A DNA stretch of 64,000 bases, taken from NCBI GenBank assembly GCA_016214905.1, contig JACRMQ010000007.1:631695-695694 (forward strand), read 5' to 3'. The translations under genes and the position numbers were made by a program. Of this stretch, positions 3,147-27,733 are shown piece after piece (the stretch's first letter is position 1; the number at the start of each line of letters is the position of its first letter). This stretch comes from Ignavibacteriales bacterium (GTDB lineage: Bacteria > Bacteroidota > Ignavibacteria > UBA10030 > SZUA-254). The notes beneath the pieces are model-generated. The model did not search any database, was not told where the DNA came from, and saw nothing but the letters and a program-made list of their open reading frames with translations.

Positions 3147-3569
3147 CCGCGCAACAAAATGTGATATTTTTCTACACCTAGCTACCCTCTAAAAGAATAG
3201 TTATACTAGTAGAATTGTCTTTTGGTCCCGAGCTATTGTCCATAAAAAGATCTGCCCGTTGATATCGATCTTCCTACCGCATAAAAAACAACAGGAAATA
3301 TTTCTTCCGGCTTCTTCGATTTTATTAAAAAATTTAATGTCTTTGTTCTCTTGCATTTCCCCTTTTGATGTGTTATATCAACGGCACATAAACGCTATTA
3401 GTGCCATTAATATATTTGGGATATTGAAATTTGAATCCAGTTTTTCACAATCCTACTTGCTTTCTTCTCTAATACCTCGTATATTTGTACGATAATATTG
3501 AGTAATTAGCAAGTGAATACTTGTAGATTACCTGTAAATCTCAGCAATTTTTACGATATTTACGAGATA

Positions 3570-5338: not shown

Positions 5339-5358
5339 CGAATATCATCTAACTTTTT

Positions 5359-7998: not shown

Positions 7999-8034
7999 GA
8001 ATCTGCATACATTAACAAAATAAGGACTGTTAAA

Positions 8035-9312: not shown

Positions 9313-9842
9313 AAGCTAAAAAGATGAGTATCGTAAAATTAGTTTTCGACCTTATTGAAGATAGTAATTATTTTCTCAAAGAAGCTGAAAAGTTAGAGAA
9401 TAATTCTTCGGTCCAGCAACGATTCCTAAGAGCATCCCTCCTGAGTGTTTGGTCTGGATTTGAAGGTTGGATTAATAAGACTTGTTCTGATTTAGCAAAA
9501 ACGATTACTGATATTACCGTGCATGAAAAAGGTTTCTTAGTCGAAAAAAGGATTGAGATGAAGAACGGTTTATTCGTGTTGACAAACTCTGATAAATATG
9601 AAACCATAGAGAATAAGGTCGATTATTTGCTTAGGAATTTTGGAAACCGTAGGCTCGATAAGTCAAATAAACATTGGCAAAACTTTAAATTTGTCAAAGA
9701 ATTACGTGATTCCATTGTTCATCCTAAGAAAATTAATCCACCGCATTTATCGATTTCAAACGTACGTTTAGCTATAGAAACTATTAAATATTATTTACAG
9801 TTGCTCTCGATAAGGATTTACAAAACTAAACTTGAGATATAA
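9309..9842 (+). CDS. HEPN-domain protein (putative RNase effector)
   Basis: 177 aa. C-terminal ELRDSIVHPKK is a canonical R-x4-H HEPN motif, and the N-terminal half looks helical. Translationally coupled to the preceding gene; ends 5 nt before hsdM. Confidence 0.55.
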   Translation: MKAKKMSIVKLVFDLIEDSNYFLKEAEKLENNSSVQQRFLRASLLSVWSGFEGWINKTCSDLAKTITDITVHEKGFLVEKRIEMKNGLFVLTNSDKYETIENKVDYLLRNFGNRRLDKSNKHWQNFKFVKELRDSIVHPKKINPPHLSISNVRLAIETIKYYLQLLSIRIYKTKLEI

Positions 9843-9847
9843 TAATT

Positions 9848-12836: not shown

Positions 12837-12870
12837 AATAATCACATAAAGAAGCGAAAAGGTTCACATA

Positions 12871-13275
12871 ATGCCATTTGATGATGAAACCATAGAATTA
12901 GTGTTCGAAAAAGCAAATGGAAAATGCCACTACTGTGGTAAGCAGCTATCATGGGCAAATTACGGTCGCCGAGACGCGCGAGGTGGCTGGGAAATTGATC
13001 ACAGTTTTCCTCGTTCTCGCGGAGGAACTGATCATCTTAATAATCTTGTACCATCGTGCTGGACATGTAACCTGGATAAGAGTAATACTTCGAGTAAACA
13101 ATTCAAACGATATGCTGAACCATTGAAACGAGATCGCAAAAAGAAAAGAATAGAAAAAACGGTAACCGAGATCCTTGGTATAGCTGCTATCGGAGCGCTT
13201 CTCATAATAGGAGCTAAGATGCTCTCCAACTGGCTCGACAAGAGCAATCAGTCTGATAACCCTCCGAATCCATAA
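12871..13275 (+). CDS. HNH endonuclease with C-terminal transmembrane anchor
   Basis: CHYCGKQL...WEIDHSFPRSRGGTDHLNNLVPSCWTCNLDKS is a beta-beta-alpha-Me HNH motif with CxxC...CxxC. A basic linker (KRDRKKKR) follows, then the hydrophobic helix ILGIAAIGALLIIGAKML. Confidence 0.8.
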   Translation: MPFDDETIELVFEKANGKCHYCGKQLSWANYGRRDARGGWEIDHSFPRSRGGTDHLNNLVPSCWTCNLDKSNTSSKQFKRYAEPLKRDRKKKRIEKTVTEILGIAAIGALLIIGAKMLSNWLDKSNQSDNPPNP

Positions 13276-13345
13276 ATAGATTTGTACCTACTCACACCCC
13301 TGTTCCGAAGTATTTCGGGAAAGATATTCATTATTTTTCTCTCCC

Positions 13346-13383
13346 TTTTTTGAATATAGTTGCGCACACTTGTCTTTTTCGGC
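13346..13383 (+). repeat. 38-nt direct repeat, copy A (left boundary of the ImmA-PIN-giant cassette)
   Basis: ttttttgaatatagttgcgcacacttgtctttttcggc matches 21442-21479 at 36 of 38 positions in the same orientation. The flanking sequence is unrelated. Confidence 0.85.
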
Positions 13384-13396
13384 ACGTCTTTGTTCA

Positions 13397-13432
13397 GTTG
13401 ACAAAATGTAATATTTTTCGTATATTGTCAAC
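13397..13432 (+). promoter_or_regulatory. Sigma70-type promoter embedded in an 8-bp inverted repeat (candidate operator of the XRE-ImmA regulator)
   Basis: TTGACA (13398-13403), 17-nt spacer, TATATT (13421-13426). Inverted repeat gttgacaa (13397-13404) / ttgtcaac (13425-13432). A GGAG lies 6 nt before ATG 13451. Confidence 0.6.
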
Positions 13433-13450
13433 CAGAGAAATGGAGAATTT

Positions 13451-14521
13451 ATGATTGGTATTCGAATTAAACAAGCTCGGTTAGCAGCGGGCTTTTCCTT
13501 ACGAGAATTGGCAGAAAAGACGGATAATTATATAAGTGCACAAGTTATACATAAGTATGAACTTGGTAAATCTATGCCCGGCTCCGATGTGTTGCTTAAA
13601 TTAACAAAAGCGTTAGGAGTAAAGATGGAATTTTTCTTTCGTCCTTTAACTCAAAATGTATCACTTAGTTTACCTGCATATCGAAAACGTGCAACGGCTT
13701 CGGTTAAACATCTTCAATCCGTTCAATCCCATGCAAAAGATTGGGTCGAAAAATACCTAGAAGTTGAATCACTCTTCTCCGATCATCGGGTTTTAAAAGT
13801 ATCTTTACCCAAAGAACAAGATCGATTTATATCTAAGTTGGTGGATGTAGAACATTTAACTAAAGAACTGAGAAAACATTGGAAACTTGGGATTGATCCT
13901 ATCGAACATCTAACTGAAGTTCTTGAAGATAGAGGAGTGAAGGTTGTCATGCTGGAAGGCGAGGATGATTTTGACGGTCTATCTTGCTGGGCAAATGACG
14001 AAATCCCCGTAATTGTTGTGAAGAAAAATCAAACTTCCGATAGATTACGTTTCAGTATCGCTCACGAACTTGGCCATCTGCTTATGAAATTATCATCGTC
14101 TGTTAATCCGGAGAAAGCTTCAGACCGTTTTGCAGGTTCCTTTCTTGTCCCCGAAGAAGCCGTCCGGCTTGAACTTGGGGAATCGAGAAATAAACTCAGT
14201 GTTTTTGAACTAAGGTCGATTAGAAAAAAGTATGGTATGAGCATTCAGGCATGGATATACAGAGCAAAGGATGTAGGTGTCATCACTGAAAATTATGCGA
14301 CGTCAATTTTTCGATTATTTAAAAAATTAGGTATCCATACCAAGGAACTTGGAGATCAGCTTCCTTCCGAGCAACCAAAACGTTATGAACGTTTAGTCAT
14401 TCAGGCTGTTGAAGAAGGATTGTTATCCCCAGCCCGTGCAGCTGAGTTGCTTGGCATATCACTTAACGAATTCCGAAAAAATCTTAAGGGTGGCTTTGAA
14501 AGATCCGACACTAGTTCTTGA
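13451..14521 (+). CDS. XRE-family HTH fused to an ImmA/IrrE (COG2856) zinc metallopeptidase domain
   Basis: N-terminal HTH (IGIRIKQARLAAGFSLRELAEKTDNYISAQVIHKYELGKSMP). HExxH site in FSIAHELGHLLM. Confidence 0.85.
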   Translation: MIGIRIKQARLAAGFSLRELAEKTDNYISAQVIHKYELGKSMPGSDVLLKLTKALGVKMEFFFRPLTQNVSLSLPAYRKRATASVKHLQSVQSHAKDWVEKYLEVESLFSDHRVLKVSLPKEQDRFISKLVDVEHLTKELRKHWKLGIDPIEHLTEVLEDRGVKVVMLEGEDDFDGLSCWANDEIPVIVVKKNQTSDRLRFSIAHELGHLLMKLSSSVNPEKASDRFAGSFLVPEEAVRLELGESRNKLSVFELRSIRKKYGMSIQAWIYRAKDVGVITENYATSIFRLFKKLGIHTKELGDQLPSEQPKRYERLVIQAVEEGLLSPARAAELLGISLNEFRKNLKGGFERSDTSS

Positions 14522-14987
14522 CACAAGTATATGTGTCGATCTTTCCAATGGGAAGCTGCTCGAAATTGCATTGCAGCTACACTATACATTTCTTTTACCA
14601 GATGTCATCGCTGGTGAGTTAATGGATCCACAGGGAGAAGACTTGCTGAAGATAGGTTATAAGGTAATTAATCTTGCACCCGAACAAATCGGTTACATCG
14701 AAATATTAAATCAAAAATACAGTCAGCCTTCGAGAGCCGATTTATTTGCGCTTGCATCAGCAAAATATCTCTCGTGTATTTTGCTGACAGGAGATCAATC
14801 ACTTCGTAAAGCTGCAGACACAGAATCAGTAGAAGTTCATGGAATATTATGGTTGTTAGACAAACTTGTATTTGGCAAGCTAATCACTGCGGATTTTGCT
14901 TCCCATTCACTTAATAATATAATCGAAAGCGGAAGCTGGTTACCCAAAAAAGAAATCGAAACGCGATTGAAGAAATGGAAAAAATAA
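14490..14987 (+). CDS. PIN-domain protein (COG2405/DUF3368-like)
   Basis: LVLDTSICVDL is the N-terminal acidic PIN motif. ILLTGDQSLRKAADTESVEVHGILWLLDKLVFGKLI follows the DD..aR..A...G..v.GtlgvL pattern. GTG 14490 is proposed as the start (32-nt overlap with the upstream gene); the ORF-track start at 14409 would overlap by 113 nt. Confidence 0.7.
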   Translation: MALKDPTLVLDTSICVDLSNGKLLEIALQLHYTFLLPDVIAGELMDPQGEDLLKIGYKVINLAPEQIGYIEILNQKYSQPSRADLFALASAKYLSCILLTGDQSLRKAADTESVEVHGILWLLDKLVFGKLITADFASHSLNNIIESGSWLPKKEIETRLKKWKK

Positions 14988-15041
14988 TGCTGTTAAAATT
15001 CTCGCTTGAAATTAATCAAGTTAAATTATTATTAATAGATT

Positions 15042-18000
15042 TTGAGATCAAACATCGTGCGTGACGATTTTTCACAATCAGTGAAGGAATTACTTGCTAA
15101 GCGAGTTAATTATCTTTGCTCAAATCCGAAGTGTTTGAGACAAACTTTAGGACCACATTCCGATCAATCAAAATTTGTTAGTGTTGGAGTAGCGGCTCAC
15201 ATTACTGCAGCAGCACCAGGTGGAAAAAGATATGATCGGTCGCTCTCTAAAAAAGAGAGAATGAGTTCGAGGAATGGTATCTGGCTCTGCACAGATTGCG
15301 CAAAAATAATTGACACTGATGAGGTTGCATACCCAGTGGATCTCTTGCAAACATGGAAAAGAAGCGCAGAGACTTTAGCATCGAAGGCTTTCCAAAGCGG
15401 GTTTTCAATTGCGAGTGAGGGGTCGTCATTGTCGCTATTGTACTCAATTAATGCTGATAACCAAGAATTAGTATCCCAAATTAATACGATTACTGAAAAA
15501 GAATTGGAAGATCAACGTCAATCTTGGCGTGAAGGAAAAAGAGAAGACGCTCAACTATGGATATCTTCAGTTAAAACAAACGATACAATATGGTTAGCTC
15601 TGCCAGGCGAAACTAAAGGCAAAATTCTGAATTTTGAAGCAGCTATCGGTCTTGATAGTATGAGTGACATCAATCATGTCCAAATATTAATCAACCAAGC
15701 AGGACAAATCGCACCTTCTGTAAATCAAGTCCGTCTACGAGCGATGCTTACATACAAAATGTCCGGTCCAATTGATGCAATCAAACTTCTTGACGAACAG
15801 ACGGACATCGATGGACTTAATCTAAAAGCAGCTTTATATCTTGAAACTGGAGAAATACAAAAGTGCGAAGAAATATTCGTCTGCGATGGTGGATTGGATG
15901 CACTTACAAAGCAAAAACCCAACGCAGAGGTGTTCAGAATTCGTGCGCTTCTACATCTTGTAAAACGTGAGATTGATCTATCTCGACTCGCGATTCGAAA
16001 AGCATTGGAGCTTCAACCCAAGTGGGAAAGTATCAGAATTACTGCAGCTCTGATAAACTATTTCTGTGTTATTGTTCCTGCCGCACTTCCTGCACGACTC
16101 ATGCCTTGGCCTGAGCCTGTCGATTGGCGAGCTCTTAAACGTGATAACGATAGCGTTAGATATCTCCGCGAGGCAACAGAGACCTTCAAAGAGCTCATTG
16201 AATCTCATAGGAACAATCTCGAAATACGCCAAACATTCGAATCATGGTTTATTGCTTGTCTATTAAATGATGCTATGCGGCAAGACGAAGCGATAGCGTG
16301 CTGCCAGAATTTCTTAAAAGATGATCCTGCTCACTATCGAATAGTTGCTTGGGTAACTTCTCGTAACTTGGATATAGACCTTCGACCGTCGATACATACT
16401 CTTGAGAATCTTATTAGAAGAAAGAATGCTACAGCCATTCATGTTGTTATTCTCGTTAGTTGCTATTTGATAAAAAAACGTTCGACCAAGGCTATTAAAT
16501 TGCTTCAACAGCAAAAGAATATCTTTCTCCAACAGAAAGGTAAAGAGCTTTGGCACTTCTGGAACGTTCAATCTTATGTAGTTGGAGAAGATATCAAAGG
16601 TGCCGCACGTGCCATAAAGGAGTGCTCGACAGAGATCAATACACAATCGCTGGAAGAGATGATTCTGCATGCCCAATTCATAAAGGATGGAAAGCCGGAA
16701 CCATTAATCGAATATCTCGAATCAATTCACAGGAAAACTAACGATCCAATATATTTGCTTGAAGCGTGTGAAGTAATGGCTCAGGGGGGCAATTGGAAAT
16801 ATGTATCCGAGCGCGCTGACATACTAATTAAGGAAGTTCAAAGTATTCAAGCGGTGAGGTTAACAGCTATATCGACACTAAATAATGGTGACCCAGGAAC
16901 TTGTCTGAAGATCATTGATGATCACATCCATATTTTCCCCGACCGTCAACTCCCAAGTGATCTCCGTCGAGTCAGAATCCAAGCGACACGAGCTCTCGGT
17001 TTGTTGCCAGATGCCTTAGCCGAAGCTGAAAAACTTGCTCACGATGATTCATCTACAACAAATATTCTCAATTGTGCTCAATTGTATTTCGAAACTGGTG
17101 ACTTGAAAGGTCTCGCGACTAATGCGAGACTGCTTATTGATCGTACAGATGTCACTTCTGAACAATTATTGAATTTGGTACGGTTAGTTAATTTGGGGGA
17201 CCATAATTTAGCATGTGCACTATGGCGAAAAGCTATGAATAATGGAATCCCTGATTCTACTGTTTCTCTGGCTTTTGGGCTTGCATTTCAGCTTGGGCTC
17301 GAAAAGGAAATTGGTTCACTTCATAAGCGAATGGCTGACCTCAGTCATTCTAGTCGTCATGGTGTTAAAATGTTTTCTCTCGATGATTTAATTTCCCTTA
17401 TAAAGAATCAGCGAGAGCATACTGAAAAAATAGAAGACGCTTACAATAATGGGATTGCACCAATACACCTTATTGTTGAGCTAGCCAATAAGACACTTGT
17501 GGAGCTTTATCATTGGTCTTTGACTAAGCGTGAACAAGCACGCGATCCTCAATATCAATCATATCTCTTAGCGCGTCATGGAGGCAAACTACTAATGAAT
17601 TGTTTCCCCCAGGAAGCTCCTTCATGGAACCTCCACTTAGACATTACAAGTATTCTACTCGCAGAGCACTTGGGTATATTTGATTTCATTGAAAAATCAT
17701 TTACTCCAATTATGATTCCAATGGAAACGATACCTGCACTTCTTTATATGCAAGAGCGGATGAAATACCATCAACCTAGTCGATTGGAGGAATTTCGAGC
17801 TATCCTTAATATGATTGAGATGCAAAAGATTTTTGTAATTGAGGATCGACTTAAAGAAGAATATGAGAATCATTCTCTTATAGAAGAGATGGGTATGGAC
17901 TGGGTCTCCCTGCTTGAGAACGCACGGATAAAGAATGGTTATCTCGTCGATTTTCTTCCACTTATAAAAAATGATCGGAGTGGTCCTCCCAGTGCTCTTT

Positions 18001-21000
18001 CCCGTGAAATGAGTCAATTGATCCTTGATAAACGTGCCGTTATAGAATCACTATACAAATTTGGTCCTTTGACAAGCGACAATTATAAGCATGCACTCGA
18101 AGCAAATGGCTATTCGAAAGATAATGAGTGTAACGGTCAAGTGCCCACGCAGGGAAAGAATCTACTTTTCCATTTCAATACAATTGAAGGATTTTCTAGC
18201 TCTGGAATGCTTGATGCTCTATGTGAACGATTCACTGTCTACATTGAAAAGAATGAACTAGACCATATTAAAGCAGAGCTAGATTCTAATCAACAAACAA
18301 CAGAGGTATTCCACTGGTTGGGTGTTTTGATTGACCGACTTCGAAGTGGTGTAGATAAGAATGTCTATTCAATTCTTCCTGCTGTTCAATCAGATAAGAA
18401 AAGTGAAGATATCGGTAATGATCTTGAGAGTAAGTGTCTCAGATCCTTATTTCAATACAAGGTTGCACCAGGGGACGTGATATGGTCAGATGATCGTTTC
18501 ATGAACAGTTATGCCCATCGTGATGGGGCACCAATAGTCGGAGTAAACGAAATATTAAAAGGACTTGTCGCAGCCGGGTCTATCAATGAGGATGTTTACT
18601 ATGAGAAGATAAGTCGGCTACGTGCTGGAAATGTCCTATTTGTTCCAGTACTAACCGAAGAAATTCTATATCATATACGACACGCACATGTTCATGAGGG
18701 AACCCTTGTCGAGACCGATGATCTCATAATACTTCGACGTTACATCTCCTACTGTTTATCAAAAGGTCACCTTCTCCAGCGTCAGCCAATGCAGGAAAAT
18801 GCACCGAACAGAGACGGTGAGATTGCTTTTATCATAAGTCTAGGTCGTGCCTTAAATGAAGCGCTTGTTGAGATTTGGTGGGACGAAAATGAAGAAGAGA
18901 GAATTCTGCTTGCAAGGTCAGAATGGGTTCTGAACAATCTACTTATGAATCACCTCGCCATTTTTGAACAGACGGGCTTACATAAACCTGAGCACGATGA
19001 CCTCTTCATTACGGCACTTAGTCTTTCAATTCTCTTGACCCACGCCATCCAGTTCAAAATTAAGTCTTCATCGCTAAAAGAAACTCCGCGTCAAAAGTAC
19101 TTTCGGTGGTTATACCACCGCGTTCTTCGGATGCGATTCGAAGCCGATCCGCACCTTCCAGAAATTGTTGCAAATCAAATCAACAAGACACTGCAATCAA
19201 TGCCTATCAAAAGCGCTGATCCGCAGACTATCAGTGCAGAATTGTTCATCCTGCAATCCTATTTTCATGATCTCCCCGAACCAATTCGTGAAGCACTTTC
19301 GAAGGATCATGACTTCATGGAGAGTATTGGATTGAAATATGGTCCACTTGTAACAGTAGCAGAACATTCATTTGAAGCCCAGACATTTTACAGTGCTGTT
19401 TTGGAGGCAATTAATGGGAGAGAAGTAATAGCATCAACGACTCATCCTGAAAAGAGAGATATTACCTTTATGCCAATGTTGGAGGGCAGATCTGATGGTT
19501 TTTGCATCATAAACCCTTCTACAAATGAAAGACTTCAGGTTGTAGAGGAGACAATTGGAATACTCCGAGATTCTATAAACGAACAACAGACTTTTCTAAA
19601 ACAACATCGATCTTGGTTCGATGTTGATGAAGAAACATACACAAAAATCTCTACTGAGATTCTTTCAATTCGAGATGCTCGAGGAAGGATGGATGAGATC
19701 CAATCATGGCGTGATAGAAGTATGAGCGTTCATTACCAAACCATCACATCAAAAATAAGAAAGACTTCTCAGATCAATTTACAGCAACTAGATCCACCAA
19801 CAGCTGAAGGTATTCTTGGGTATCTACGTATTCCTTTGTCCGCAGGACCAGGGGCAGAGTTCAAACGTGCATTAGAGATTGCTGCAACATTGTTGATCGC
19901 AGAAGAAGGCCTTTCTGAGGCGATAAAGCGACTTTTTGCTTTGCCTGTTCCATTACCAGATGCTCTTTTAGATGCTGTCACACAACTTTCCCGGGAAAAA
20001 CGTCGATCTCTAATCAAAAGAATATTGAGAACTTCACCATCACCCGTGTCGAGAATTCATTTAATTCGTATTATCTCGGATTGTCTTACGGATTCACCAT
20101 CTTATCTATATCTGTTACGTCGAATTGTCAGAGGGTTGCTAAGTGATGAGGGAAAAGAATGCTTTGGAGCGTTTTCAAGTGTTCTGAAATACTTCAATGA
20201 AGAATTTACTCATTCAAATAAATTTACGAAAATACCTTATCATATTCGGTTGGCAGCTTGCTGGGCGCACTCGAACCAAATTTTTTCGATATTCGTTTTC
20301 GAGGGAACACCGATAAAATGGATAGAAGAAACCTTTTCAATCTCGCGGCAACGGTTGCCTTCTGATGTCTTCAAGCGAGATCCTGAGTATTGGTTCAATA
20401 TTATCCACCCCCGACGAATCAATAGGCTAGGATTCCTACTTTCAGGTATTGGATATTCGTTCGGACAAAATGCTTTACACATAGTCAATGAGCATATACT
20501 AGGTATAATTACTGAGGTAGCCTTTCCTGTTATCAATGGTAAACCATTCCCGTCTCATGAGATTTTGCTTGATCCTTCTCTCTTTAATGATTCGGTGAAT
20601 TCATTTCTTAGCGGCGATCGCGGTGAGAAACTGGCGCCATTGCTTGGCAACGACTTGGCCGACATGCTCAGCAAAGCATCACTTGAAACCTCGACTCTTG
20701 ATGTGGTCAAGTCTCTTATCGAGCGACAAACCGATTTCTCACTTTGGGCATTATTACACGCGTTGATCGGTGAGTTGCCTCCCCCGAAGGAGGTCGCGGA
20801 ACATTTGAAATCCTTGATGCGAAAAAGTGACTTGCTCGAGATCTACCATTCTAATGTCGAAGCTGGACAGTTCGCAGTGCTTATGTTAACCCAACAGTTG
20901 ATCAATCTTAAGGATGAAGGATTGCGTCAGAGGTTTCGCAGTCAACTGATTGCGTTGACAAAATATCTTGCAGACAATCTTTCTACTACCAAGATATCAA

Positions 21001-21245
21001 GGCAAGACGAATACCCAAACAAAATACAATATGTTCTTGTTAAGTCTGCATTCAATATTTCGGTTGCAGTAGAGCCACCCAGAGATTCGGTAGAAGGGTT
21101 TCAGGCTTTACTGACTGACCTCGTGAAAGCATGGCCAGCAATGATCCCTGCATGCAGTACTCTCGTTAATCGGTTTTGTGAGGAATTACCTATCGTCGAG
21201 GCAAAAAAGCTTTATCACTTGCTTGTTCGAATTCGATTGCACTGA
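15042..21245 (+). CDS. Giant (2067 aa) multidomain protein: N-terminal HNH-like nuclease, TPR-like array, internal PIN-like segment, ~800-aa helical C-terminal region of unknown function
   Basis: A single uninterrupted ORF. aa ~20-110: CSNPKC...VAAHITAAAPGGKRYD...RNGIWLCTDCAKIID (HNH family, with the last His replaced by Ala). aa ~180-760 is TPR-like helical repeats. LHLDITSILLAEHLG... and ...VIWSDDRFMNSYAHRDGAPIVGVNEILKGLVAAGSI resemble a split PIN. No Walker A motif seen. The start is uncertain (TTG 15042 or GTG 15057). Confidence 0.75.
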   Translation: MRSNIVRDDFSQSVKELLAKRVNYLCSNPKCLRQTLGPHSDQSKFVSVGVAAHITAAAPGGKRYDRSLSKKERMSSRNGIWLCTDCAKIIDTDEVAYPVDLLQTWKRSAETLASKAFQSGFSIASEGSSLSLLYSINADNQELVSQINTITEKELEDQRQSWREGKREDAQLWISSVKTNDTIWLALPGETKGKILNFEAAIGLDSMSDINHVQILINQAGQIAPSVNQVRLRAMLTYKMSGPIDAIKLLDEQTDIDGLNLKAALYLETGEIQKCEEIFVCDGGLDALTKQKPNAEVFRIRALLHLVKREIDLSRLAIRKALELQPKWESIRITAALINYFCVIVPAALPARLMPWPEPVDWRALKRDNDSVRYLREATETFKELIESHRNNLEIRQTFESWFIACLLNDAMRQDEAIACCQNFLKDDPAHYRIVAWVTSRNLDIDLRPSIHTLENLIRRKNATAIHVVILVSCYLIKKRSTKAIKLLQQQKNIFLQQKGKELWHFWNVQSYVVGEDIKGAARAIKECSTEINTQSLEEMILHAQFIKDGKPEPLIEYLESIHRKTNDPIYLLEACEVMAQGGNWKYVSERADILIKEVQSIQAVRLTAISTLNNGDPGTCLKIIDDHIHIFPDRQLPSDLRRVRIQATRALGLLPDALAEAEKLAHDDSSTTNILNCAQLYFETGDLKGLATNARLLIDRTDVTSEQLLNLVRLVNLGDHNLACALWRKAMNNGIPDSTVSLAFGLAFQLGLEKEIGSLHKRMADLSHSSRHGVKMFSLDDLISLIKNQREHTEKIEDAYNNGIAPIHLIVELANKTLVELYHWSLTKREQARDPQYQSYLLARHGGKLLMNCFPQEAPSWNLHLDITSILLAEHLGIFDFIEKSFTPIMIPMETIPALLYMQERMKYHQPSRLEEFRAILNMIEMQKIFVIEDRLKEEYENHSLIEEMGMDWVSLLENARIKNGYLVDFLPLIKNDRSGPPSALSREMSQLILDKRAVIESLYKFGPLTSDNYKHALEANGYSKDNECNGQVPTQGKNLLFHFNTIEGFSSSGMLDALCERFTVYIEKNELDHIKAELDSNQQTTEVFHWLGVLIDRLRSGVDKNVYSILPAVQSDKKSEDIGNDLESKCLRSLFQYKVAPGDVIWSDDRFMNSYAHRDGAPIVGVNEILKGLVAAGSINEDVYYEKISRLRAGNVLFVPVLTEEILYHIRHAHVHEGTLVETDDLIILRRYISYCLSKGHLLQRQPMQENAPNRDGEIAFIISLGRALNEALVEIWWDENEEERILLARSEWVLNNLLMNHLAIFEQTGLHKPEHDDLFITALSLSILLTHAIQFKIKSSSLKETPRQKYFRWLYHRVLRMRFEADPHLPEIVANQINKTLQSMPIKSADPQTISAELFILQSYFHDLPEPIREALSKDHDFMESIGLKYGPLVTVAEHSFEAQTFYSAVLEAINGREVIASTTHPEKRDITFMPMLEGRSDGFCIINPSTNERLQVVEETIGILRDSINEQQTFLKQHRSWFDVDEETYTKISTEILSIRDARGRMDEIQSWRDRSMSVHYQTITSKIRKTSQINLQQLDPPTAEGILGYLRIPLSAGPGAEFKRALEIAATLLIAEEGLSEAIKRLFALPVPLPDALLDAVTQLSREKRRSLIKRILRTSPSPVSRIHLIRIISDCLTDSPSYLYLLRRIVRGLLSDEGKECFGAFSSVLKYFNEEFTHSNKFTKIPYHIRLAACWAHSNQIFSIFVFEGTPIKWIEETFSISRQRLPSDVFKRDPEYWFNIIHPRRINRLGFLLSGIGYSFGQNALHIVNEHILGIITEVAFPVINGKPFPSHEILLDPSLFNDSVNSFLSGDRGEKLAPLLGNDLADMLSKASLETSTLDVVKSLIERQTDFSLWALLHALIGELPPPKEVAEHLKSLMRKSDLLEIYHSNVEAGQFAVLMLTQQLINLKDEGLRQRFRSQLIALTKYLADNLSTTKISRQDEYPNKIQYVLVKSAFNISVAVEPPRDSVEGFQALLTDLVKAWPAMIPACSTLVNRFCEELPIVEAKKLYHLLVRIRLH

Positions 21246-21668: not shown

Positions 21669-21845
21669 CCTCCGCAATCATACTGTTATTCAATAAGCCA
21701 AAACTAAAATCGGCTTCGCGATTCCATTTCTGAAAGTTTCTCGATAGGGATGGAATCGCTCTTTATTTTGCCTGCATTCACTCGCAACCGTTTATGATTG
21801 CGGAAAGTTCTCTTTGGTTACTTTCTCTTCAAAGAGAAAGTAACA
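21669..21845. ncRNA. Structured repeat element, copy 1 (candidate non-coding RNA; family not recognised)
   Basis: 177 nt sharing its ends and stem-forming segments with 23296-23473. P1 ccgcaatcata (21672-21682) / tatgattgcgg (21793-21803). P2 gcgattccat (21718-21727) / atggaatcgc (21760-21769). Terminal 12-bp hairpin at 21817-21844, plus a competing hairpin 21808-21817 / 21829-21838. Strand undetermined. Confidence 0.5.
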
Positions 21846-22180
21846 ACTCCAACTCTTATTTTCTGAGCTCCTACATTCTAACTTAACAAACGCATTGTTG
21901 CTAACTTCATCATTTGATCAGGCATCCCGACTCGATTGCCATCTAGACGGGATCTGTTCTTTCCCCAGCATAAACACAAAGTCCCACAACCGGGTGGTGA
22001 GCGCCGTGGGAGGGCCGGTCACTCACGTGGGATCCCGGAAGTGGGACAAAACCGCATCCAATCTAACACATTCCTAATTATTTTTCAAATCTCAAAACCT
22101 ACTATTCAACTCATTTAATTGACCGCTTTAAATTGAAATATATCCCCGATAAAATCCCACTCCCTCGTCAAGGGCAAGTC

Positions 22181-22625: not shown

Positions 22626-23219
22626 ATGTCACATCAACAACTCAACCAAATCTTTTCACAATACATTTCAACTTTGTATAACGCTGCAAAACGAATGATC
22701 GACAAACGGCATCCACAGTATGATGATAAAGTTCAAGACCTTGTCATTCTTGCGTACGAGGAATTTATCCGTAAAGTTAATGAAGGGAAAATAATGGAGC
22801 TTGCGCTTCTAATTCATTACATGAAACTTCGCAAGAAAGAAGTGCAGATAGAAATGAGAGGGTATTCCCGGACAAATAAAACTGACGTGTTCAATAAGCG
22901 GAATTATTATGAAGGGAAGTTAGAGCTTCATTCAATCGACAATTCTATCTTCAATGGTGAAGGAGACACATACGCAGATATTATTCAAGATGAATCCAAT
23001 CTTGAAGATTATCTTCATTATAAAATAGATCTTGATACCCGTTTATCAAAACTATCAGAAAAGGAGAGAATTATTTTTATGATGAAAGAAGAAGGTTACA
23101 ACGATGACGAAATCGCTCAAGCAGTGTCGGTTAACATTCAAACAGTCAAAAGTTTTATAGACCGACTTTTATTGGAATTCTCCAATAAACACTCGAATCA
23201 ATTTACACTTCAACTTTAA
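22626..23219 (+). CDS. Sigma-70-family-like factor / region-4 HTH protein (phage or mobile-element type)
   Basis: 197 aa. The C-terminal LSEKERIIFMMKEEGYNDDEIAQAVSVNIQTVKSFIDRL looks like a sigma region 4 / LuxR-type HTH. The N-terminal half is only loosely region-2-like. Confidence 0.55.
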   Translation: MSHQQLNQIFSQYISTLYNAAKRMIDKRHPQYDDKVQDLVILAYEEFIRKVNEGKIMELALLIHYMKLRKKEVQIEMRGYSRTNKTDVFNKRNYYEGKLELHSIDNSIFNGEGDTYADIIQDESNLEDYLHYKIDLDTRLSKLSEKERIIFMMKEEGYNDDEIAQAVSVNIQTVKSFIDRLLLEFSNKHSNQFTLQL

Positions 23220-23295: not shown

Positions 23296-23473
23296 CCTCC
23301 GCAATCACACTGTTTTACAATAGCCCTTAACAAAATGAGCTTTGCGATTCCGTCATTCATAGCCATGATCAGGCTAAGGAATCGCTTTTTAATCATGCTG
23401 CTATTTCGAAAGCAACCGTTTGTGATTGCGGAAAGTTCTCTTTGGTTACTTTCTCTCCAAAGAGAAAGTAACA
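23296..23473. ncRNA. Structured repeat element, copy 2
   Basis: P1 ccgcaatcaca (23299-23309) / tgtgattgcgg (23421-23431). P2 23344-23351 / 23378-23385. Terminal hairpin 23445-23456 / 23461-23472. Perfect competing hairpin ttctctttgg (23436-23445) / ccaaagagaa (23457-23466). Ends 110 nt upstream of the next gene. Confidence 0.5.
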
Positions 23474-23582
23474 ATTAATCAATTTCTTTCTTGACGACTG
23501 AATGAAAATCCATCCACAATAACTTTGGTATAAGAAGTATGCAATCAACAATAATCCAAAACAATTAAAAGGAGATTTTACA

Positions 23583-24302
23583 ATGAACACACAAAGAGAA
23601 TTTGTGCAACTCAAAGAGCACTACATCGCAGACGTCACGCTGAAATTTGCCACCGGTCTTAAGAAGGAAGGTCAATTCGGTCCGTATTTACTTTATTCCG
23701 TTCAACACGAAGGGAAAGAGAAGTTCTTGAAAGTTACGGATCGGTTGGAGAAGCAGTTCCGTAAGTTCGACGTGAAAGCCGGTCAAGTAGTAAGCTTGTT
23801 AAAAGAAACCATCACACCGAAAAATGGTGAGCCGTTTACGGTGATAAATGTACTCGAATGCAAGGATGCACCTCACGAAGTGATGGATTCCCAAAAACCC
23901 GAGAAAAAGGAGGAGTTGATTCCACAAAAAGTGGAAAGTGCTCAACCCATCCCACAAACACCAGAAGGTTTTTCCGGTGATACATTAACAATGTATCAAT
24001 CCTTACATGATGCAGTCGACATCACAAAAACCATTGATGGAGTGGAGTGGAGAAATACCGACATCGAAAAAATCGGTGTTTGTTTGTTTCTCTCACGCAC
24101 CGGACAGCTTACAGTCGATAAGGTTCTTTCCAATGGTAATGGAAACGGTAAGCGCTTACATCGTTCTGCACCAAAGGCGCATCAGCCTCTGGCTGATAAG
24201 AAAGTTGAAGATGTGAAACCAGCTACAGTCCCTGAAAAGGTTCAAGAAATGGTTCCGGTACCAGCTGAGGTAGCCGTTGAAAAAGACGACTTGCCATTCT
24301 AG
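23583..24302 (+). CDS. Hypothetical protein with SSB-type acidic C-terminal tip (possible phage ssDNA-binding protein)
   Basis: 239 aa ending ...VEKDDLPF, resembling the D-D-D-I-P-F tip of bacterial and phage SSBs. A Pro/Glu-rich linker precedes it. The N-terminal ~95 aa could be an OB fold, but I recognise no canonical SSB motif. Good RBS (aaaggag). Confidence 0.45.
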   Translation: MNTQREFVQLKEHYIADVTLKFATGLKKEGQFGPYLLYSVQHEGKEKFLKVTDRLEKQFRKFDVKAGQVVSLLKETITPKNGEPFTVINVLECKDAPHEVMDSQKPEKKEELIPQKVESAQPIPQTPEGFSGDTLTMYQSLHDAVDITKTIDGVEWRNTDIEKIGVCLFLSRTGQLTVDKVLSNGNGNGKRLHRSAPKAHQPLADKKVEDVKPATVPEKVQEMVPVPAEVAVEKDDLPF

Positions 24303-24322
24303 CAGTTCAGAAAATAAATCGA

Positions 24323-24349
24323 AGGCACGGTTCAAACCGTGCCTATTTT
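24323..24349 (+). terminator. Rho-independent terminator
   Basis: aggcacgg (24323-24330), ttcaaa loop, ccgtgcct (24337-24344), then atttta. Lies 21 nt after the stop codon. Confidence 0.75.
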
Positions 24350-24380
24350 AAAATCACATTTTATATGAAAGGCATCTATC

Positions 24381-24893
24381 ATGACCGAAACATTATACGA
24401 AATCACAAAAGACCTGATCATTCTCAATAATCTTGACGAAGTCGATTCGACTAATGGACAGGAGGGAAACGATAAACTCGAACAACTTCAACAAGCTCTC
24501 GATAATCTCAATATGAAATTTATTGATAAGGTTTGTAACATCGTGAAATTTGTTAAGAATCTTGAGGCACACCGGGATGCTTTGGCTGCCGAAGCTAAAC
24601 GGCTTGCTGAACGAAAACGATCATTCGATTCTCGAATTGACTGGCTTAAGAAATATGTTAAAAACGCTATGGAAGTAACTCAATCAAATAAAATCAAATA
24701 TGCGTTTTTTACAATTTATGTTGCACCAAGCCAACCGAGTGTCGAGGTTAGAAATATCGATGAAGTTGAGGAGGAGTTCCTCAAGGTGAAAAAGGAGGTC
24801 GATAAAACAAAAATCATGGAACAGGTGAAATCTACCGGAGTTATTCCCAGTGGAGTAGAAATCGTTCAAGGTACGCACCTTGTGATTCGATAA
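24381..24893 (+). CDS. Siphovirus Gp157-like protein
   Basis: 170 aa. Central coiled-coil NLEAHRDALAAEAKRLAERKRSFDSRIDWLKKYV, then F...V..S.PSVEV...D...EEF...K...DK..I and GV.I....HL.IR. This follows the Gp157 family pattern as I remember it. Confidence 0.6.
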   Translation: MTETLYEITKDLIILNNLDEVDSTNGQEGNDKLEQLQQALDNLNMKFIDKVCNIVKFVKNLEAHRDALAAEAKRLAERKRSFDSRIDWLKKYVKNAMEVTQSNKIKYAFFTIYVAPSQPSVEVRNIDEVEEEFLKVKKEVDKTKIMEQVKSTGVIPSGVEIVQGTHLVIR

Positions 24894-24901
24894 AAAACGA
24901 T

Positions 24902-24932
24902 GATACCGTCTCTCCATTTCCGAGACGGTATC
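24902..24932 (+). terminator. 11-bp hairpin directly after the Gp157-like gene
   Basis: gataccgtctc (24902-24912) / gagacggtatc (24922-24932). No clear T-run follows. It occupies the first 11 codons of the tracked ORF 24900-25163, arguing against that start. Confidence 0.4.
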
Positions 24933-24944
24933 GCTTACTTACAC

Positions 24945-25163
24945 ATGGAAAAGAAAATTCAAAAGTTCAGCAAGGAAGGCGACCTTGTCTTAGTCGAGGT
25001 ATGCGGAGAACTCCATTTCGGAGTTGTTGCGTTTGCTTCCCGACGCTGCATCTGGACAAGCGCACCGTTGGAGCGCGGTACAATTCTCGGTGTGAAAGTC
25101 GCCGCTTTACCAGAGAAGCAAAGAATCTACACTTATGAACCTTTCGAAGATTCAGGATTGTAA
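24945..25163 (+). CDS. Small hypothetical protein (72 aa)
   Basis: The ATG at 24945 lies after the hairpin. No motif recognised. Ends exactly where the A-poor sequence begins. Confidence 0.3.
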   Translation: MEKKIQKFSKEGDLVLVEVCGELHFGVVAFASRRCIWTSAPLERGTILGVKVAALPEKQRIYTYEPFEDSGL

Positions 25164-25380
25164 TGCTACGATTCTGCCTGCCGATACGTGCTTGGTTTGA
25201 GTTCGCTCTCGTGGGTTCTGCAAGATACAGCCCCGTTCTCGCCACACAAGCCTTTCGCCTTCGACTTCATTCACTTCGTTCATTCCGCTCAGGCTCAACC
25301 CTCGTTTGTGCAGCTCTGCTCCTCACTCGTTTGCAAAAGGATGCGCCTTTGAATGTCACACCTTTTGCATAAAACTTCGT

Positions 25381-26130
25381 TGCGGTGCTCGCTTCCGCAC
25401 TCGGGCTGACGGGCATTGCGTGGCTGCGCATGCGGGGCTGTGCGCTTATGAGTGTTTTTTCGCTTCGCCTCGCTCAGTTGCGTGGCGGGCGTCAGTCGGT
25501 TGCTTCGGCTTGGGCTGGCTGGCGTTGGCGTTTCGCCTGCGTGTTCGCCCTCTTGGTTTCGTTATGTTTTCTTCTTTTGCTTCCGTTGGCTTCTGTGGTT
25601 CTCGGTCGCTTCCTGCGTCCGCTCAGTCGCTGGTTTCCTCTGTTGTCGGTGCTGTGTGTTCTGGTTCTTCCGCTTCGCTTGCTGTTGGCTGTTCGGTGGG
25701 CGCTGATGCTTTCGTGCTCTCTTCCGTTCCGTGTTCCGTTGTGTCTCGTCTCTCTGTGTTTGCCGCTTTCGGTTTCGGTGGTTTCGGTTCGTGTTCTCTC
25801 TCTGCTGTTTCTGCTGTGCTTGCTGCTGCTCGTTGTGGTGCTCGTGTTCGCTGGTGGGCTGGCGGTTTGCCTTCCGTTCCGTTGCGTCAGCGCCTTGCTT
25901 TGCGTTCTGTTGCTCTCGTCCGTTTCCTTGCCCGTCGTCCGCCGTCTGTTCTTGTTTGCTTTCTCTCGTCTCCTCGTTCTCGTGGTTCGCTGCTGGCGTG
26001 TCGTCTCGCTGTTCGCTCTGGTGTCGCTGTGTTTGTCTTTTGTGTCGGTTTCTCTCCAGTTCGTCTTCCTCGTGTCGGTCGTGGCTCTTGGTTGCCCGTT
26101 CAGGTTGCTGGTCTTTCTGCTTTTCGCTGG
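25381..26130. other. Adenine-free (+ strand) / thymine-free (- strand) tract, stop-free in all six frames
   Basis: Hand count gives 14 A in 750 nt, and only 5 A in 25501-26100. A sampled 60-nt line is T ~47%, G ~28%, C ~25%. Flanks are ~30% A. A graded A-poor shoulder runs 25165-25380. Five overlapping tracked ORFs here exist only because stop codons are impossible. Confidence 0.9.
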
Positions 26131-26214
26131 CAGCAGGCATCATAGGTGTGGTTAAAGAATAGGTGTTCAATTCATTTGTGTATTTGGTATAACATTAACA
26201 AGAAAGGATTCAAT

Positions 26215-26607
26215 ATGAAAACGAAATCATTTTTCATTTCAACAATACTCGTCATTATCTGTGAGATTATTTTTCAAGGACAAATCATAGCTGATGTCAA
26301 GAAGGCAATTCAAAATCTTCAGGAAGGTCTTGATGAGGCAATCCTTACAATAATTCCGGATGAAAGAAAATTTGTTCGATTCGACAAACGTGAAGATGGA
26401 ATATTAATCTACAAAGTATCGATGCAAAAAGTTGATGAAAAGACCGTTCGAATTCGTGTCACCGGATACAGTGGAATGGATGTCATCTCTATCATAACGT
26501 ATCGAATCATTGATGGAGAAAGTTATAAAACGATTGAAGAGTACAAACATCAGAAACAAGCCACCGACATTGGTATAACAAAAACAAAGAAAGGAGTCAA
26601 ACAATGA
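26215..26607 (+). CDS. Small secreted/membrane-anchored hypothetical protein
   Basis: ATG 26215 is preceded by agaaagga. The N-terminus MKTKSFFISTILVIICEIIF looks like a signal peptide or anchor. No motif recognised. Confidence 0.5.
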   Translation: MKTKSFFISTILVIICEIIFQGQIIADVKKAIQNLQEGLDEAILTIIPDERKFVRFDKREDGILIYKVSMQKVDEKTVRIRVTGYSGMDVISIITYRIIDGESYKTIEEYKHQKQATDIGITKTKKGVKQ

Positions 26608-26804
26608 TTGACATTCAACTTACTGAAGATGAAGATCACTCTATTATCCAAGCCCTCGAATCAGAGCGAGACATATTTATCAAGGATTTAAACACAAGTT
26701 CCTTAAGCATTGTACGTGAAGTGTCGAACAGAGTAATCGACCATAATAATTCGTTGATCAGAAAGCTCGAAGAACAAGTTGGAGTTAGTATTGGAATTAT
26801 TTAG
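26604..26804 (+). CDS. Small hypothetical protein (66 aa)
   Basis: ATGA overlap with the upstream gene suggests coupling. Acidic and helical-looking, no motif recognised. Confidence 0.4.
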   Translation: MIDIQLTEDEDHSIIQALESERDIFIKDLNTSSLSIVREVSNRVIDHNNSLIRKLEEQVGVSIGII

Positions 26805-26857
26805 AGTTTTCGGCTGTTTACATAATTAACATAAAACTTTTGATAGGAACCGTAGCC

Positions 26858-27733
26858 ATGTTTCAAAGAAAACACAATTTTGATTACTCAAAATCACTTT
26901 ATATCTTTGCGTTATTCTACATAACGCTGACAATTCCGACATTTGCTCAACATCATTATAATAACTGGATTCATCGGAATGCAACCGACACAACAATTGC
27001 CCGTTGCTGGGACGACTCGCTTACCTTTGCTATGTTTCCCCCCGGTTCTATGATGGGAATGATGTTCCCAGATTCAATTTACTGTCGTATCGATCGAATG
27101 CATCTTGATAGTTTGGACCATCCGCACGATTCAACATTTATGGGTTGGCATCGGATCGAAATTGGGCGCGATAGCACCCGCTTTGATATGATGGACGATT
27201 CCATGATGAGCGTAAACCATATGATGCAGTTTATGACAGGGTTACAGTGTCAGTTGCGTTGGGATAGTCTTTACACCGATTCTCTCCATAGGCGATGGAA
27301 GCCGACCGGTGTGCGCGGTTGGAATGGTACACAATGGGTAAATTTATCAGACGTTTCATTTATTGGTACTACTGCCACAGTGAAGACCTCCCAAGTATAT
27401 GCAGCAATCGCATTTGTGGGGACACCGTCTGAGGTCACAGGAATTTCCCCAACGGTAACAACACCATCGCAATACAAATTGGAGCAAAACTATCCAAATC
27501 CATTTAATCCCTCTACCGAGATCCTCTTCAACATCCCGTTGACTGAGAATGTAACGTTGGAAGTTTACAACGTGCTTGGTAAGGTTGTTGCAACACTTTT
27601 TGACAATCAACCATTGAGCGCCGGAGAACATTCTGTGCTATTCGATGCAAACAACTTAGCAAGCGGAATTTACTTCTATAGCATGAGAGCCGGTCAATAT
27701 AAATCGACTCAAAAAATGATTTTATTAAGGTAA
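26858..27733 (+). CDS. T9SS C-terminal sorting domain-containing secreted protein, Met/His/Asp-rich
   Basis: The C-terminus YKLEQNYPNPFNPSTEILFNIP...VTLEVYNVLGKVVATLFD...ASGIYFYSMRAGQYKSTQKMILLR is a typical Por/T9SS CTD. The N-terminal part is rich in M, H and D (MMGMMFPDS, MMDDSMMSVNHMMQFM). Confidence 0.8.
   Translation: MFQRKHNFDYSKSLYIFALFYITLTIPTFAQHHYNNWIHRNATDTTIARCWDDSLTFAMFPPGSMMGMMFPDSIYCRIDRMHLDSLDHPHDSTFMGWHRIEIGRDSTRFDMMDDSMMSVNHMMQFMTGLQCQLRWDSLYTDSLHRRWKPTGVRGWNGTQWVNLSDVSFIGTTATVKTSQVYAAIAFVGTPSEVTGISPTVTTPSQYKLEQNYPNPFNPSTEILFNIPLTENVTLEVYNVLGKVVATLFDNQPLSAGEHSVLFDANNLASGIYFYSMRAGQYKSTQKMILLR

Follow-up and report, generated by a model that had tools for sequence, protein, structure and literature searches.

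A gene family with almost no adenine in its sense strand, and its predicted DprA/SLOG-fold product

A tract with almost no adenine on one strand, located in 64,000 nt of Ignavibacteriales bacterium DNA (contig JACRMQ010000007.1 of assembly GCA_016214905.1, positions 631,695 to 695,694 of the forward strand; this whole stretch is referred to below as the window, and coordinates are those of the window), corresponds to a real + strand gene, of which it comprises the leader and the coding sequence. What this gene encodes is probably, judged by its modelled fold, a small, very basic, stand-alone protein of the DprA/SLOG type and a binder of single-stranded nucleic acid. The cassette encoding it is under strong strand-specific selection against adenine at each site, or under an equivalent directional process. 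To our knowledge, this would be the first natural case in which a functional cassette, 0.6-1.8 kb long, has one nucleotide excluded from its sense strand. The explanation that we tentatively prefer, and that is weighed below against its competitors, is that a message without adenine escapes an agent that attacks adenine in RNA.

Composition and authenticity of the tract

Positions 25381-26130 contain 14 A in 750 nt (1.9%), together with 207 C (27.6%), 228 G (30.4%) and 301 T (40.1%); within this tract, 25501-26100 contains 5 A in 600 nt. A shoulder immediately upstream (25165-25380) is 17% A and the remainder of the window is 31% A, with a mean of 185 A per 600 nt (sd 26) across the 64 kb. The GC fraction is 0.56-0.59 across the tract and 0.41 in its flanks. 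A first-pass annotation of this DNA, made from its letters, had arrived at the same two A counts, which a recount reproduces exactly, and at surroundings of ~30% A with GC above the flanks, as is indeed found; the T content of ~47% that it took from a sampled line is somewhat high, the actual value being 40-42%. The binomial probability of 14 or fewer A in 750 nt at p=0.308 is 2.7e-96, and the tract is the sole 600-nt segment of the 64 kb in which any base falls below 10%. All six frames are open, as it had pointed out, with open reading frames (ORFs) of 279, 256, 84 and 143 aa on the + strand and of 202 aa on the - strand, and the absence of an obvious tandem repeat stands as well: a search of tract and window for tandem or dispersed repeats turned up none of note.

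The tract is not an assembly artefact, a possibility that had been left standing, since an independent assembly, a second metagenome and a finished plasmid all carry A-poor tracts. The Logan assembly of run SRR12113407 (locus L001) is 100% identical over 23427-27061 (~3.6 kb); a contig of a different metagenome (L026) has 1.2% A and encodes a protein that is 97% identical; and Nitrosococcus oceani ATCC 19707, which is in culture, has a homologous A-poor tract on its plasmid A, a finished sequence.

Searches for RNA features and for phage relatives were negative: the whole window has no match to a structured RNA family (Rfam 15, at gathering score) and no tRNA or tmRNA gene in a scan for these, and BLASTN of the tract with its flanks finds no match among INPHARED phages. 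Global RNA structure as the reason for A exclusion is ruled out by folding energies that are ordinary on both strands (minimum-free-energy z = +1.46 for the sense and -1.36 for the antisense strand).

The gene and its product

The tract and its approach divide into three segments:

25165..25380, + strand: A-poor shoulder (17% A), delimited by composition and upstream alignment
25381..25563, + strand: A-poor non-coding leader (8 A in 183 nt), aligned at the nucleotide level, with a frame that is not conserved
25564..26145, + strand: A-less coding sequence of 193 codons and a TAG stop, supported by period-3 phase, homologues, AF2 fold and dN/dS

The frame that ends at 26145 has the properties of a gene. 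Period-3 power in the tract is 6.5, compared with a maximum of 3.8 in 500 shuffles, and is as strong as in neighbouring genes; G is enriched at codon position 1, and T makes up 54% of position 3. The start is placed at the ATG at 25564 because homologues begin MFSSFASVGFCGSRSLP. A word-index search identified 144 homologues of the 193-aa protein with 40-97% identity, and an exhaustive profile search expanded these to 1,090 clusters at 50% identity, 331 of the 1,090 at E<=1e-30. Residues G12 S13 R14, G42, G46, D48, G100 G101, R110 and R114 are invariant in the alignment, as are the GSR and G-x-x-G-x-D motifs, and dN/dS (the ratio of nonsynonymous to synonymous substitution rates) is 0.09-0.25 for this frame. 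The coding sequence contains 10 A, four of them within the last three codons (stop included). The six that precede these are found in the ATG start, in the Asp codon of a GAD motif (25706), in three CAG codons for Gln (25625, 25889 and 26102) and in one CCA (26058).

The first-pass annotation had held that the tract was not simply a gene. It had considered a non-coding element or a K/Q/R/E-rich protein encoded by the 202-aa ORF of the - strand, and had listed as possible functions a template or product of a biased polymerase or reverse transcriptase, a nuclease-resistant or restriction-site-free decoy, a - strand protein-sponge RNA and a stop-free translational substrate. That six frames are open and that a 202-aa - strand ORF exists is true, the latter as a by-product of composition; codon phase, protein conservation (with hundreds of homologues), dN/dS and a confident fold are all properties of the + frame, folding energy is ordinary, and the tract is present in independent assemblies and on finished plasmids from cultured strains. 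We attach next to no credence to this group of readings, the artefact included: nothing was found in support of a sponge RNA or a stop-free substrate, nor of a biased polymerase or reverse transcriptase, the last of these being missing from every annotated neighbourhood. The nuclease-resistant member of the list comes closest to the explanation that we favour; its restriction-site-free companion is weakly supported by the palindrome counts that are given below.

The AF2 model of the 193-aa protein (pLDDT 96.7, pTM 0.92) is a Rossmann-type alpha/beta domain that fills the entire chain, the N-terminal SAM and C-terminal winged-helix (DML1-like) domains being absent. Its best Foldseek matches in the PDB are Helicobacter pylori DprA (5mll/4ljk, probability 1.00, TM-score 0.56-0.58) and ShosA (8zva, TM-score 0.62). 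Comparison with sequence models is less productive. The window protein matches no Pfam, NCBIfam or PADLOC model (PF02481 not even at E<=1, and not the PADLOC ShosA model), and a PHROGs scan was likewise negative for the - strand ORF and for both long ORFs of the + strand. For PF02481, with its cut-off at 29.6 bits, the relative P0088 scores 31.7 bits, with P0060 and P0109 under the cut-off; P0088 also reaches E=0.0012 with the ShosA model, and the score for TIGR00732, 23.6 bits, is far below its cut-off of 191. Going by its modelled fold, the protein represents a new branch of the DprA/SLOG superfamily that stands alone, and not a canonical DprA. It is very basic, with many Arg, one Asp and no Glu, and it is made from an alphabet of about ten amino acid types (F, L, S, C, W, P, R, V, A and G) plus the one essential Asp, because A is kept out of the sense strand.

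Exclusion of adenine at synonymous sites

The inference that the constraint acts on the nucleic acid, which had been drawn from composition, is borne out: no codon position escapes the exclusion of A, which extends to four-fold degenerate sites and to the leader and, in relatives, to the start codon and the Shine-Dalgarno (SD) sequence as well. At the four-fold degenerate sites of the window gene A is present 3 times in 155 (1.9%), compared with 30% in flanking genes (P=5e-20), and T is at 63% instead of 33%. Neither A3+T3 nor GC3 departs from its flank value, so A has been swapped for T at synonymous sites, and the same swap is seen in relatives from genomes that range from 39% to 65% GC; G3 is often lower than C3. 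Avoidance is equally strong at codon positions 1, 2 and 3. Between subclades dS is ~1, which is to say saturated, and A still never turns up; the exclusion is therefore not a frozen accident.

The residual A are not randomly placed. Among ~37 dereplicated A-less genes, codons ending in A were counted and compared with the numbers expected from the codon usage of flanking genes:

GGA: observed 1, expected 145, ratio 0.007
CGA: observed 1, expected 97, ratio 0.010
GTA: observed 6, expected 97, ratio 0.06
CTA: observed 3, expected 49, ratio 0.06
CCA: observed 11, expected 70, ratio 0.16
TCA: observed 45, expected 209, ratio 0.22
GCA: observed 48, expected 193, ratio 0.25

Classified by its 5' neighbour, A is thus avoided ~100-fold in GA, ~16-fold in UA and ~5-fold in CA. 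The effect crosses codon boundaries: the base preceding a first-position A is C in 64 cases (36 expected), G in 19 (33 expected) and T in 23 (37 expected; p=9e-8). C precedes 60% of all residual A, and those preceded by G belong mostly to the essential Asp codon. Of the 14 A of 25381-26130 in the window, nine are preceded by C, three by G, including that of the Asp codon, and two by T, including that of the start codon. This hierarchy points to an enzyme that reads context as the agent of exclusion, and away from nucleotide supply or the choice of tRNA. Avoidance of out-of-frame stop codons was also considered as its source and is ruled out, GGA and CGA not being stops.

Nucleotide supply merits a further word. 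The cassette might be transcribed when ATP is lacking as a substrate, or its + strand replicated when dATP is lacking, during a collapse or poisoning of adenine pools of the kind that ATP nucleosidases, RADAR-type deaminases, ShosT-like toxins of purine metabolism or chain-terminating A analogues would bring about. Such a shortage would account for exclusion in coding and non-coding parts alike and for the tolerance of a few A, and the structural relative ShosA is the antitoxin of an APRTase-like toxin, ShosT, that disrupts purine metabolism (PMC11961720). It does not predict a strong dependence on the 5' neighbour, and translation would require ATP and GTP all the same; the A-rich tails to which some family members are fused (see below) are difficult to accommodate, and no PRTase-like (ShosT) or other nucleotide-depleting partner adjoins the gene in the window or in the syntenic loci. 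We regard a shortage of nucleotides as very unlikely to be the cause.

Leader, shoulder and signals for translation

The leader (25381-25563) probably serves the A-less gene as its 5' untranslated region. At the nucleotide level it can be aligned among W-type loci, in near-invariant blocks, but as a reading frame it is not conserved: ORF extensions proposed by gene callers use three different frames in three close relatives, and the in-frame extensions of P0002 and P0003 match different frames of the window. Its period-3 signal is weak, and there is modest covariation in predicted hairpins. The shoulder contains a 69-aa ORF (25163-25372) of uncertain reality and, at ~25335-25378, the last A-containing block, which is conserved in relatives and may, as assigned by eye, be the promoter; a sigma-70 scan of 25165-25380 found nothing.

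The most extreme relatives have 1-2 A in 470-600 nt and start with GTG, with GGGGG(TG) at the place where GGAGG would be expected. Such runs lie 6-15 nt 5' of the GTG starts in L103, L105, L072, L078, L092, L066 and L090, and GGGGG(TG) is apparently an adenine-free surrogate of the SD sequence. In several other loci (L009 at ~4440-4740, L011 and L016 each at ~9700-10000, and L044) the A-poor leader is replaced by a structured element of ~150-250 nt, in which long-range pairing (GCTGCCGCAAGGG...CCCTTGCAGCAGC) surrounds internal hairpins and which has a GGGCTGACG core in common with the leader of the window. Structured leaders of three related loci have no Rfam match at E<=0.1; from its sequence, the element could be a regulatory RNA or a promoter of the single-stranded DNA type.

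The leader bears on an account of the exclusion at the level of translation, in which the message, requiring only tRNAs with U-less anticodons, survives anticodon nucleases (of the PrrC, PARIS, retron and colicin E5 types) or ribosome-dependent mRNA interferases (of the HigB/RelE types). All NAN and ANN amino acids are indeed avoided, as are the synonymous NNA codons, and in one locus (L025) the A-less zone begins exactly at the start codon, following a normal SD sequence. In many loci, however, leaders, spacers between ORFs, SD sequences and start codons are A-less, the context effect crosses codon boundaries, and the fused tails make use of the avoided tRNAs; equal avoidance at positions 1, 2 and 3 also does not suit toxins that act in the ribosomal A site on specific codon positions. 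Taken together, these points make an origin in translation most improbable.

Distribution and variation of the family

Approximately 110 loci were recovered (of which 18 come from species-representative genomes, 77 from metagenomes and 6 from IMG/VR, several more being exact protein look-ups), so the search for related tracts that had been called for succeeded, with the Gp157-family neighbour of the window found beside some of them; the part made against INPHARED phages found nothing, tblastn of two family members being as negative as BLASTN. Locus labels include Bacteroidota, Ignavibacteriota, Chlorobiaceae, Acidobacteria, Desulfobacterales, Anaerolineae and Rubrobacterales, to which gammaproteobacterial plasmids are to be added, and the A-less trait is shared by ~100 loci of at least 8 phyla. 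In most loci the gene is 0.2-6% A between flanks of 17-35%, many having one or two A in 470-600 nt, and throughout the ~110 loci the effect is specific to the base A, to the strand of the gene and to the cassette. Because the tracts are open in six frames, gene callers mis-extend their ORFs or call the wrong strand. A number of contigs (L067, L072, L082, L083, L087, L092, L096, L098, L102 and L105) start or stop inside the A-less tract, which may reflect assembly breaks in sequence of low complexity or real genome ends.

Tracts are typically 740-790 nt long, and the longest extend over 1.3-1.8 kb. The long tracts have a second conserved A-less ORF of ~75 aa immediately upstream of the DprA-like gene, with the motif AGSAVGSGA..RSxSGAVLVAGF..AFAxRWSGRL..AVRR..VSVPVA and with database homologues (P0258-P0262) that are partly of ordinary composition. 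It is found, among other places, at:

L103, 9763-9993: second A-less ORF
L067, 3687-3917: second A-less ORF
L068, 630-851: second A-less ORF
L090, 5506-5724: second A-less ORF
L108, 9665-9868: second A-less ORF

A different family of A-poor ORFs, annotated only as hypothetical and with the motif ..SGxVWAWRA..PSPACxFxP.., occupies the same upstream position in N. oceani plasmid A (L112, 8321-9001) and in the metagenomic loci L064 and L074.

Some members depart from the typical cassette. One subclade (L007/L008, P0014 and P0023) has in-frame fusions of the A-less domain to a transmembrane + HhH tail with 35-42% A, and A content changes sharply at the end of the domain. Members of normal composition, which are a minority, include P0175/P0209 (~430 aa) and P0220 (965 aa), in which the domain is fused to two RadC/JAB domains, an architecture typical of the anti-restriction polyproteins of conjugative elements. 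Their existence suggests that the A-less state is derived. That it is also actively maintained is indicated by a relaxed copy, L017, in which A at four-fold sites has returned to the flank value (28%) and positions 1 and 2 are still A-poor, the order of decay that is expected once a constraint is lifted. L017 and a second relaxed paralogue, L018 (17% A each), lie ~16 kb apart on one 1.8-Mb Ignavibacteriota contig, near AbiE and Fic genes, and may be domesticated or decaying copies. Among syntenic loci no neighbouring gene tracks the A-less or relaxed state as a clean correlate: the strongly A-less L016 is without Gp157 and the small c6 gene of the module described below, exactly as are the relaxed L009, L027 and L028.

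Could these patterns have been generated by mutation? A local, strand-specific, adenine-directed mutator that turns A mostly into T would spare only those A that are strongly selected, and might operate by depurination followed by A-rule bypass, or by adenine-mutagenic reverse transcription of the transcript, as in diversity-generating retroelements (DGRs). At four-fold sites the gain of T does equal the loss of A, with GC3 unchanged, and the frequent deficit of G3 relative to C3 is what a drain from G through A to T would leave; the gradual 5' shoulder and sharp 3' edge resemble a cDNA that is primed at its 3' end; the A that survive lie in the start codon and in codons for the invariant Asp and for conserved Gln; and copies in other contexts are relaxed. 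Yet the edges of the tracts fall on start and stop codons or, in fusions, on the domain limit, to which a mutator would be indifferent; the trait has stayed stable across at least 8 phyla with unrelated replication systems, and a mutator of sufficient strength would also hit the essential A at a high rate. Known adenosine deaminases, for their part, disfavour a 5'-G, which is the opposite of the observed context. Direct traces of such a machinery were also looked for: Pfam scans and precomputed annotations of the window and eight related loci show no reverse transcriptase (RVT), the window and its annotated relatives no Avd, and a search for a pair of template and variable repeats (TR/VR) differing at adenines found no match in any annotated neighbourhood. 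We consider a mutational origin distinctly unlikely.

What the exclusion may protect against

The explanation that we favour, at somewhat less than an even chance, is that the A-less mRNA escapes an adenine-directed modifier or nuclease of RNA. Each adenine of a transcript would be the potential site of a lethal strike by an activity that attacks single-stranded RNA and reads the context of its target. A message lacking A from its 5' end to its stop codon could not be disabled in this way, and the DprA-like protein would still be made while other messages are blocked. Endoribonucleases or toxins specific for A are conceivable agents, and another is an ADP-ribosyltransferase of the CmdT kind directed at the A of GA; the activity might belong to host defence, or to the element itself as a means of host shut-off. 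CmdT, an anti-phage toxin, ADP-ribosylates N6 of the A in GA dinucleotides of single-stranded RNA and blocks translation (PMC11618068). That the tract extends from about the presumed start of the transcript to the stop codon, which is the stretch that a translating ribosome must traverse, counts in favour of a target in RNA.

Several observations weigh on the other side. Neighbouring genes, presumably on the same transcript, are A-rich, and the fusions to transmembrane + HhH tails imply that in that subclade the whole message is not A-less. L025, L021 and L060 retain a normal SD sequence, GGAGG or AAGGAGA, that contains GA. CmdT alone would demand the avoidance of GA only and not of every A, and the excess of T and the deficit of G3 relative to C3 also fit a mutational process that changes A to T.

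The principal alternative places the target in DNA. The template (-) strand of the cassette is without thymine, so a thymine-directed attack on DNA, such as ADP-ribosylation of T in single-stranded DNA by enzymes of the DarT type, or the action of glycosylases on modified or replaced T, could not block RNA polymerase on the gene; in a variant of this idea, the cassette lacks restriction and methylation sites that contain A or T while it is the first DNA to be exposed. TNTC is the modified-T context of Thermus DarT, and the most strongly avoided dinucleotide, GA, reads TC on the template. The tract takes in the non-coding leader, the SD sequence and the start codon, and the element lies among restriction-modification (R-M) and Abi genes. 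The encoded protein is DprA-like, and DprA-like ShosA binds single-stranded DNA (PMC11961720). What is difficult to reconcile with a DNA target is that the + strand is 40% T, so replication would still be vulnerable: TNTC, at 0.93 of expectation, is present on that strand about once per 30 nt, with no sign that the DarT motif is avoided there. Protection would also be limited to one cassette of an element of 10-40 kb, and several loci keep A, hence T on the template, in the SD region. Palindromes composed only of G and C, which base exclusion would not remove, stand at 0.59 of expectation for 6-mers in the tracts compared with 0.71 in the flanks (for 4-mers, 0.87 and 0.90), somewhat rarer in a tract in which GC is raised. 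This depletion is mild, and too weak for restriction avoidance to carry the explanation. We judge a DNA-level target to be unlikely, though the likeliest of the alternatives to the escape of the message from attack on RNA.

Genomic neighbourhood

The A-less gene is located in a recombination-type module composed of a sigma-like regulator, a 239-aa protein, Gp157 and small ORFs. Its companions in the window are:

22626..23219, + strand: sigma-70 region-4/ECF-like regulator (cluster c4), first in the syntenic module; PF08281 at E=3.5e-7 and phage sigma-factor PHROGs; 14 related loci
23583..24302, + strand: conserved 239-aa protein (cluster c2), module member; 17 related loci, no family match
24381..24893, + strand: Siphovirus Gp157-family gene (cluster c5), recurrent neighbour; PF05565 at E=8e-36 and phrog_253; L005, L007 and 14 clustered loci
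24900..25163, + strand: small 87-aa gene (cluster c6) of ordinary composition, directly upstream; 14 related loci
26212..26607, + strand: 131-aa downstream gene with normal A content; homologue fused in P0039
26604..26804, + strand: small 66-aa gene (cluster c3); 15 related loci, ~1 kb downstream of the A-less start

Neither the 239-aa nor the 87-aa protein matches a family in Pfam, PHROG or NCBIfam. In P0039, from an Ignavibacteriae metagenome-assembled genome, the homologue of the 131-aa gene is fused in frame to the A-less domain, which hints at a functional link between the two products. The sigma-like gene is bracketed by two copies (21669-21846 and 23296-23474) of a ~170-nt element that are 80-97% identical and 1,628 nt apart, the second just upstream of the 239-aa gene, and each ending in a perfect-looking hairpin (GTTACTTTCTCT..AGAGAAAGTAAC); the element, which is probably the "structured repeat" of the first-pass annotation, may act, in its two copies, as a promoter, operator or terminator.

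A defence island (3513-21245) adjoins the module on its upstream side:

3513-5338: AbiEi/AbiEii
5359-7998, 9848-11269 and 11250-12836: hsdR, hsdM and hsdS of a type I R-M system
13451-14521: RmrA-like HTH + M78 peptidase (PADLOC, E=1.7e-53)
15042-21245: 2,067-aa TPR-GreAB-C-PIN system protein with an N-terminal endonuclease-like region and HTH/PIN/GreAB-C domains

Relatives of the module occur in phages, plasmids and integrative elements, often heading a rightward operon and inside defence islands. In integrative elements they are accompanied by an HTH/M78 switch, a PolB-exo-like gene and an integrase, the gene often being first in a rightward string of small genes; on phage contigs they adjoin an SU10-type adaptor, amidase or capsid gene. 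Cultured plasmid carriers include N. oceani ATCC 19707, N. halophilus, N. watsonii, Methylomagnum, Methylobacter and Methylocaldum. On N. oceani plasmid A (NC_007483.1) the tract (~2832-3950, ~1.1 kb, 1-8% A as against 23% overall) spans the homologue and an upstream ORF and adjoins hicAB, DUF932 and parAB. No oriT, relaxase or Frpo-like promoter was recognised here, no test having been dedicated to leading regions.

Relation to known systems

A full-text literature search brought to light no description of adenine-free prokaryotic or phage genes, in agreement with the first-pass annotation, which knew of no such element; we rate the exclusion of a single base as a new phenomenon, with only partial analogies. 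The protein shares its modelled Rossmann/SLOG fold with DprA/Smf and ShosA, at the TM-scores already given, and a distant member of its family, P0088, reaches the gathering score of PF02481. We know of no DprA or ShosA gene of other than ordinary composition. Canonical DprA and ShosA have SAM and C-terminal domains, both of which the ~190-aa protein lacks; some of its relatives add transmembrane + HhH or RadC/JAB domains, unlike canonical DprA. Its strongly positive charge, read from the sequence, would fit nucleic-acid binding; DprA/Smf proteins are recombination mediators characterised by single-stranded DNA binding and RecA loading. In Shosta (ShosTA) systems ShosA is found beside the PRTase/PPase toxin ShosT; there is no ShosT-like partner here, and the gene is hence not a Shosta component.

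In principle there would be a likeness to messages that survive a sequence-specific, RNA-targeting activity by lacking its target. ACA-less mRNAs resist MazF, and the target of CmdT, GA, is the context most strongly excluded here. The analogy has its limits: a whole nucleotide is excluded rather than a motif of 2-5 nt, and the exclusion is natural, conserved in ~1,000 protein clusters and forces an alphabet of ten amino acids on the product.

Avoidance of restriction sites in the DNA that first enters a cell is familiar from the first-step-transfer DNA of T5 and, as a bias of EcoP15I site orientation, from T7. The cassette would likewise be an early or anti-defence-type gene of a mobile element with raised GC, and exclusion of one base from one strand removes every palindrome that contains A or T and every type I site. 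The depletion of GC-only palindromes hardly exceeds that in the flanks. Plasmid leading regions are described as GC-rich, with early-expressed genes for single-stranded DNA-binding protein and anti-defence functions on the T-strand (PMC13478746, PMC11541004), and a published analysis of leading regions describes no motif as consistently depleted, its abstract making no mention of single-base exclusion.

DGRs are the best-known adenine-specific process of phage biology, and their variable regions are typically shorter than 0.6-1.8 kb, the length of the tracts described here. An A-less sequence would be immune to DGR mutagenesis, or could be its end product; with no reverse transcriptase, Avd or TR/VR pair in the window or its annotated relatives, the cassette is not a DGR element. 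In eukaryotic secretory mRNAs the regions that encode signal sequences are reported to be depleted in adenine and to act at the RNA level (PMC2100149). That depletion is short and partial and relates to nuclear export; the likeness to the tract is compositional only.

Implications

It is close to an even chance, in our estimate, that what may be called target-base exclusion is an unrecognised strategy of immune evasion or self-immunity, in which an early cassette, from its leader through the ribosome-binding site and start codon to one or two genes, is purged of one nucleotide on one strand and thereby offers no target to an adenine-directed attack on RNA or single-stranded DNA. The graded avoidance of GA, UA and CA would then be the footprint of the attacking enzyme, and a functional Rossmann-fold family made from about ten types of amino acid would be a by-product. 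Exclusion that persists through saturating synonymous change in many phyla points to a strong and widespread adenine-specific selective agent that acts on RNA or single-stranded DNA in conflicts between phages and their hosts. The dinucleotide hierarchy can be compared with the preferences of candidate enzymes, among them CmdT-like ADP-ribosyltransferases, A-specific RNases and DarT-like enzymes, and cultured carriers such as N. oceani ATCC 19707, with its plasmid A, make the idea directly testable. The family is, in addition, a natural experiment in a reduced amino-acid alphabet, with a bearing on the origins of proteins and on their design.

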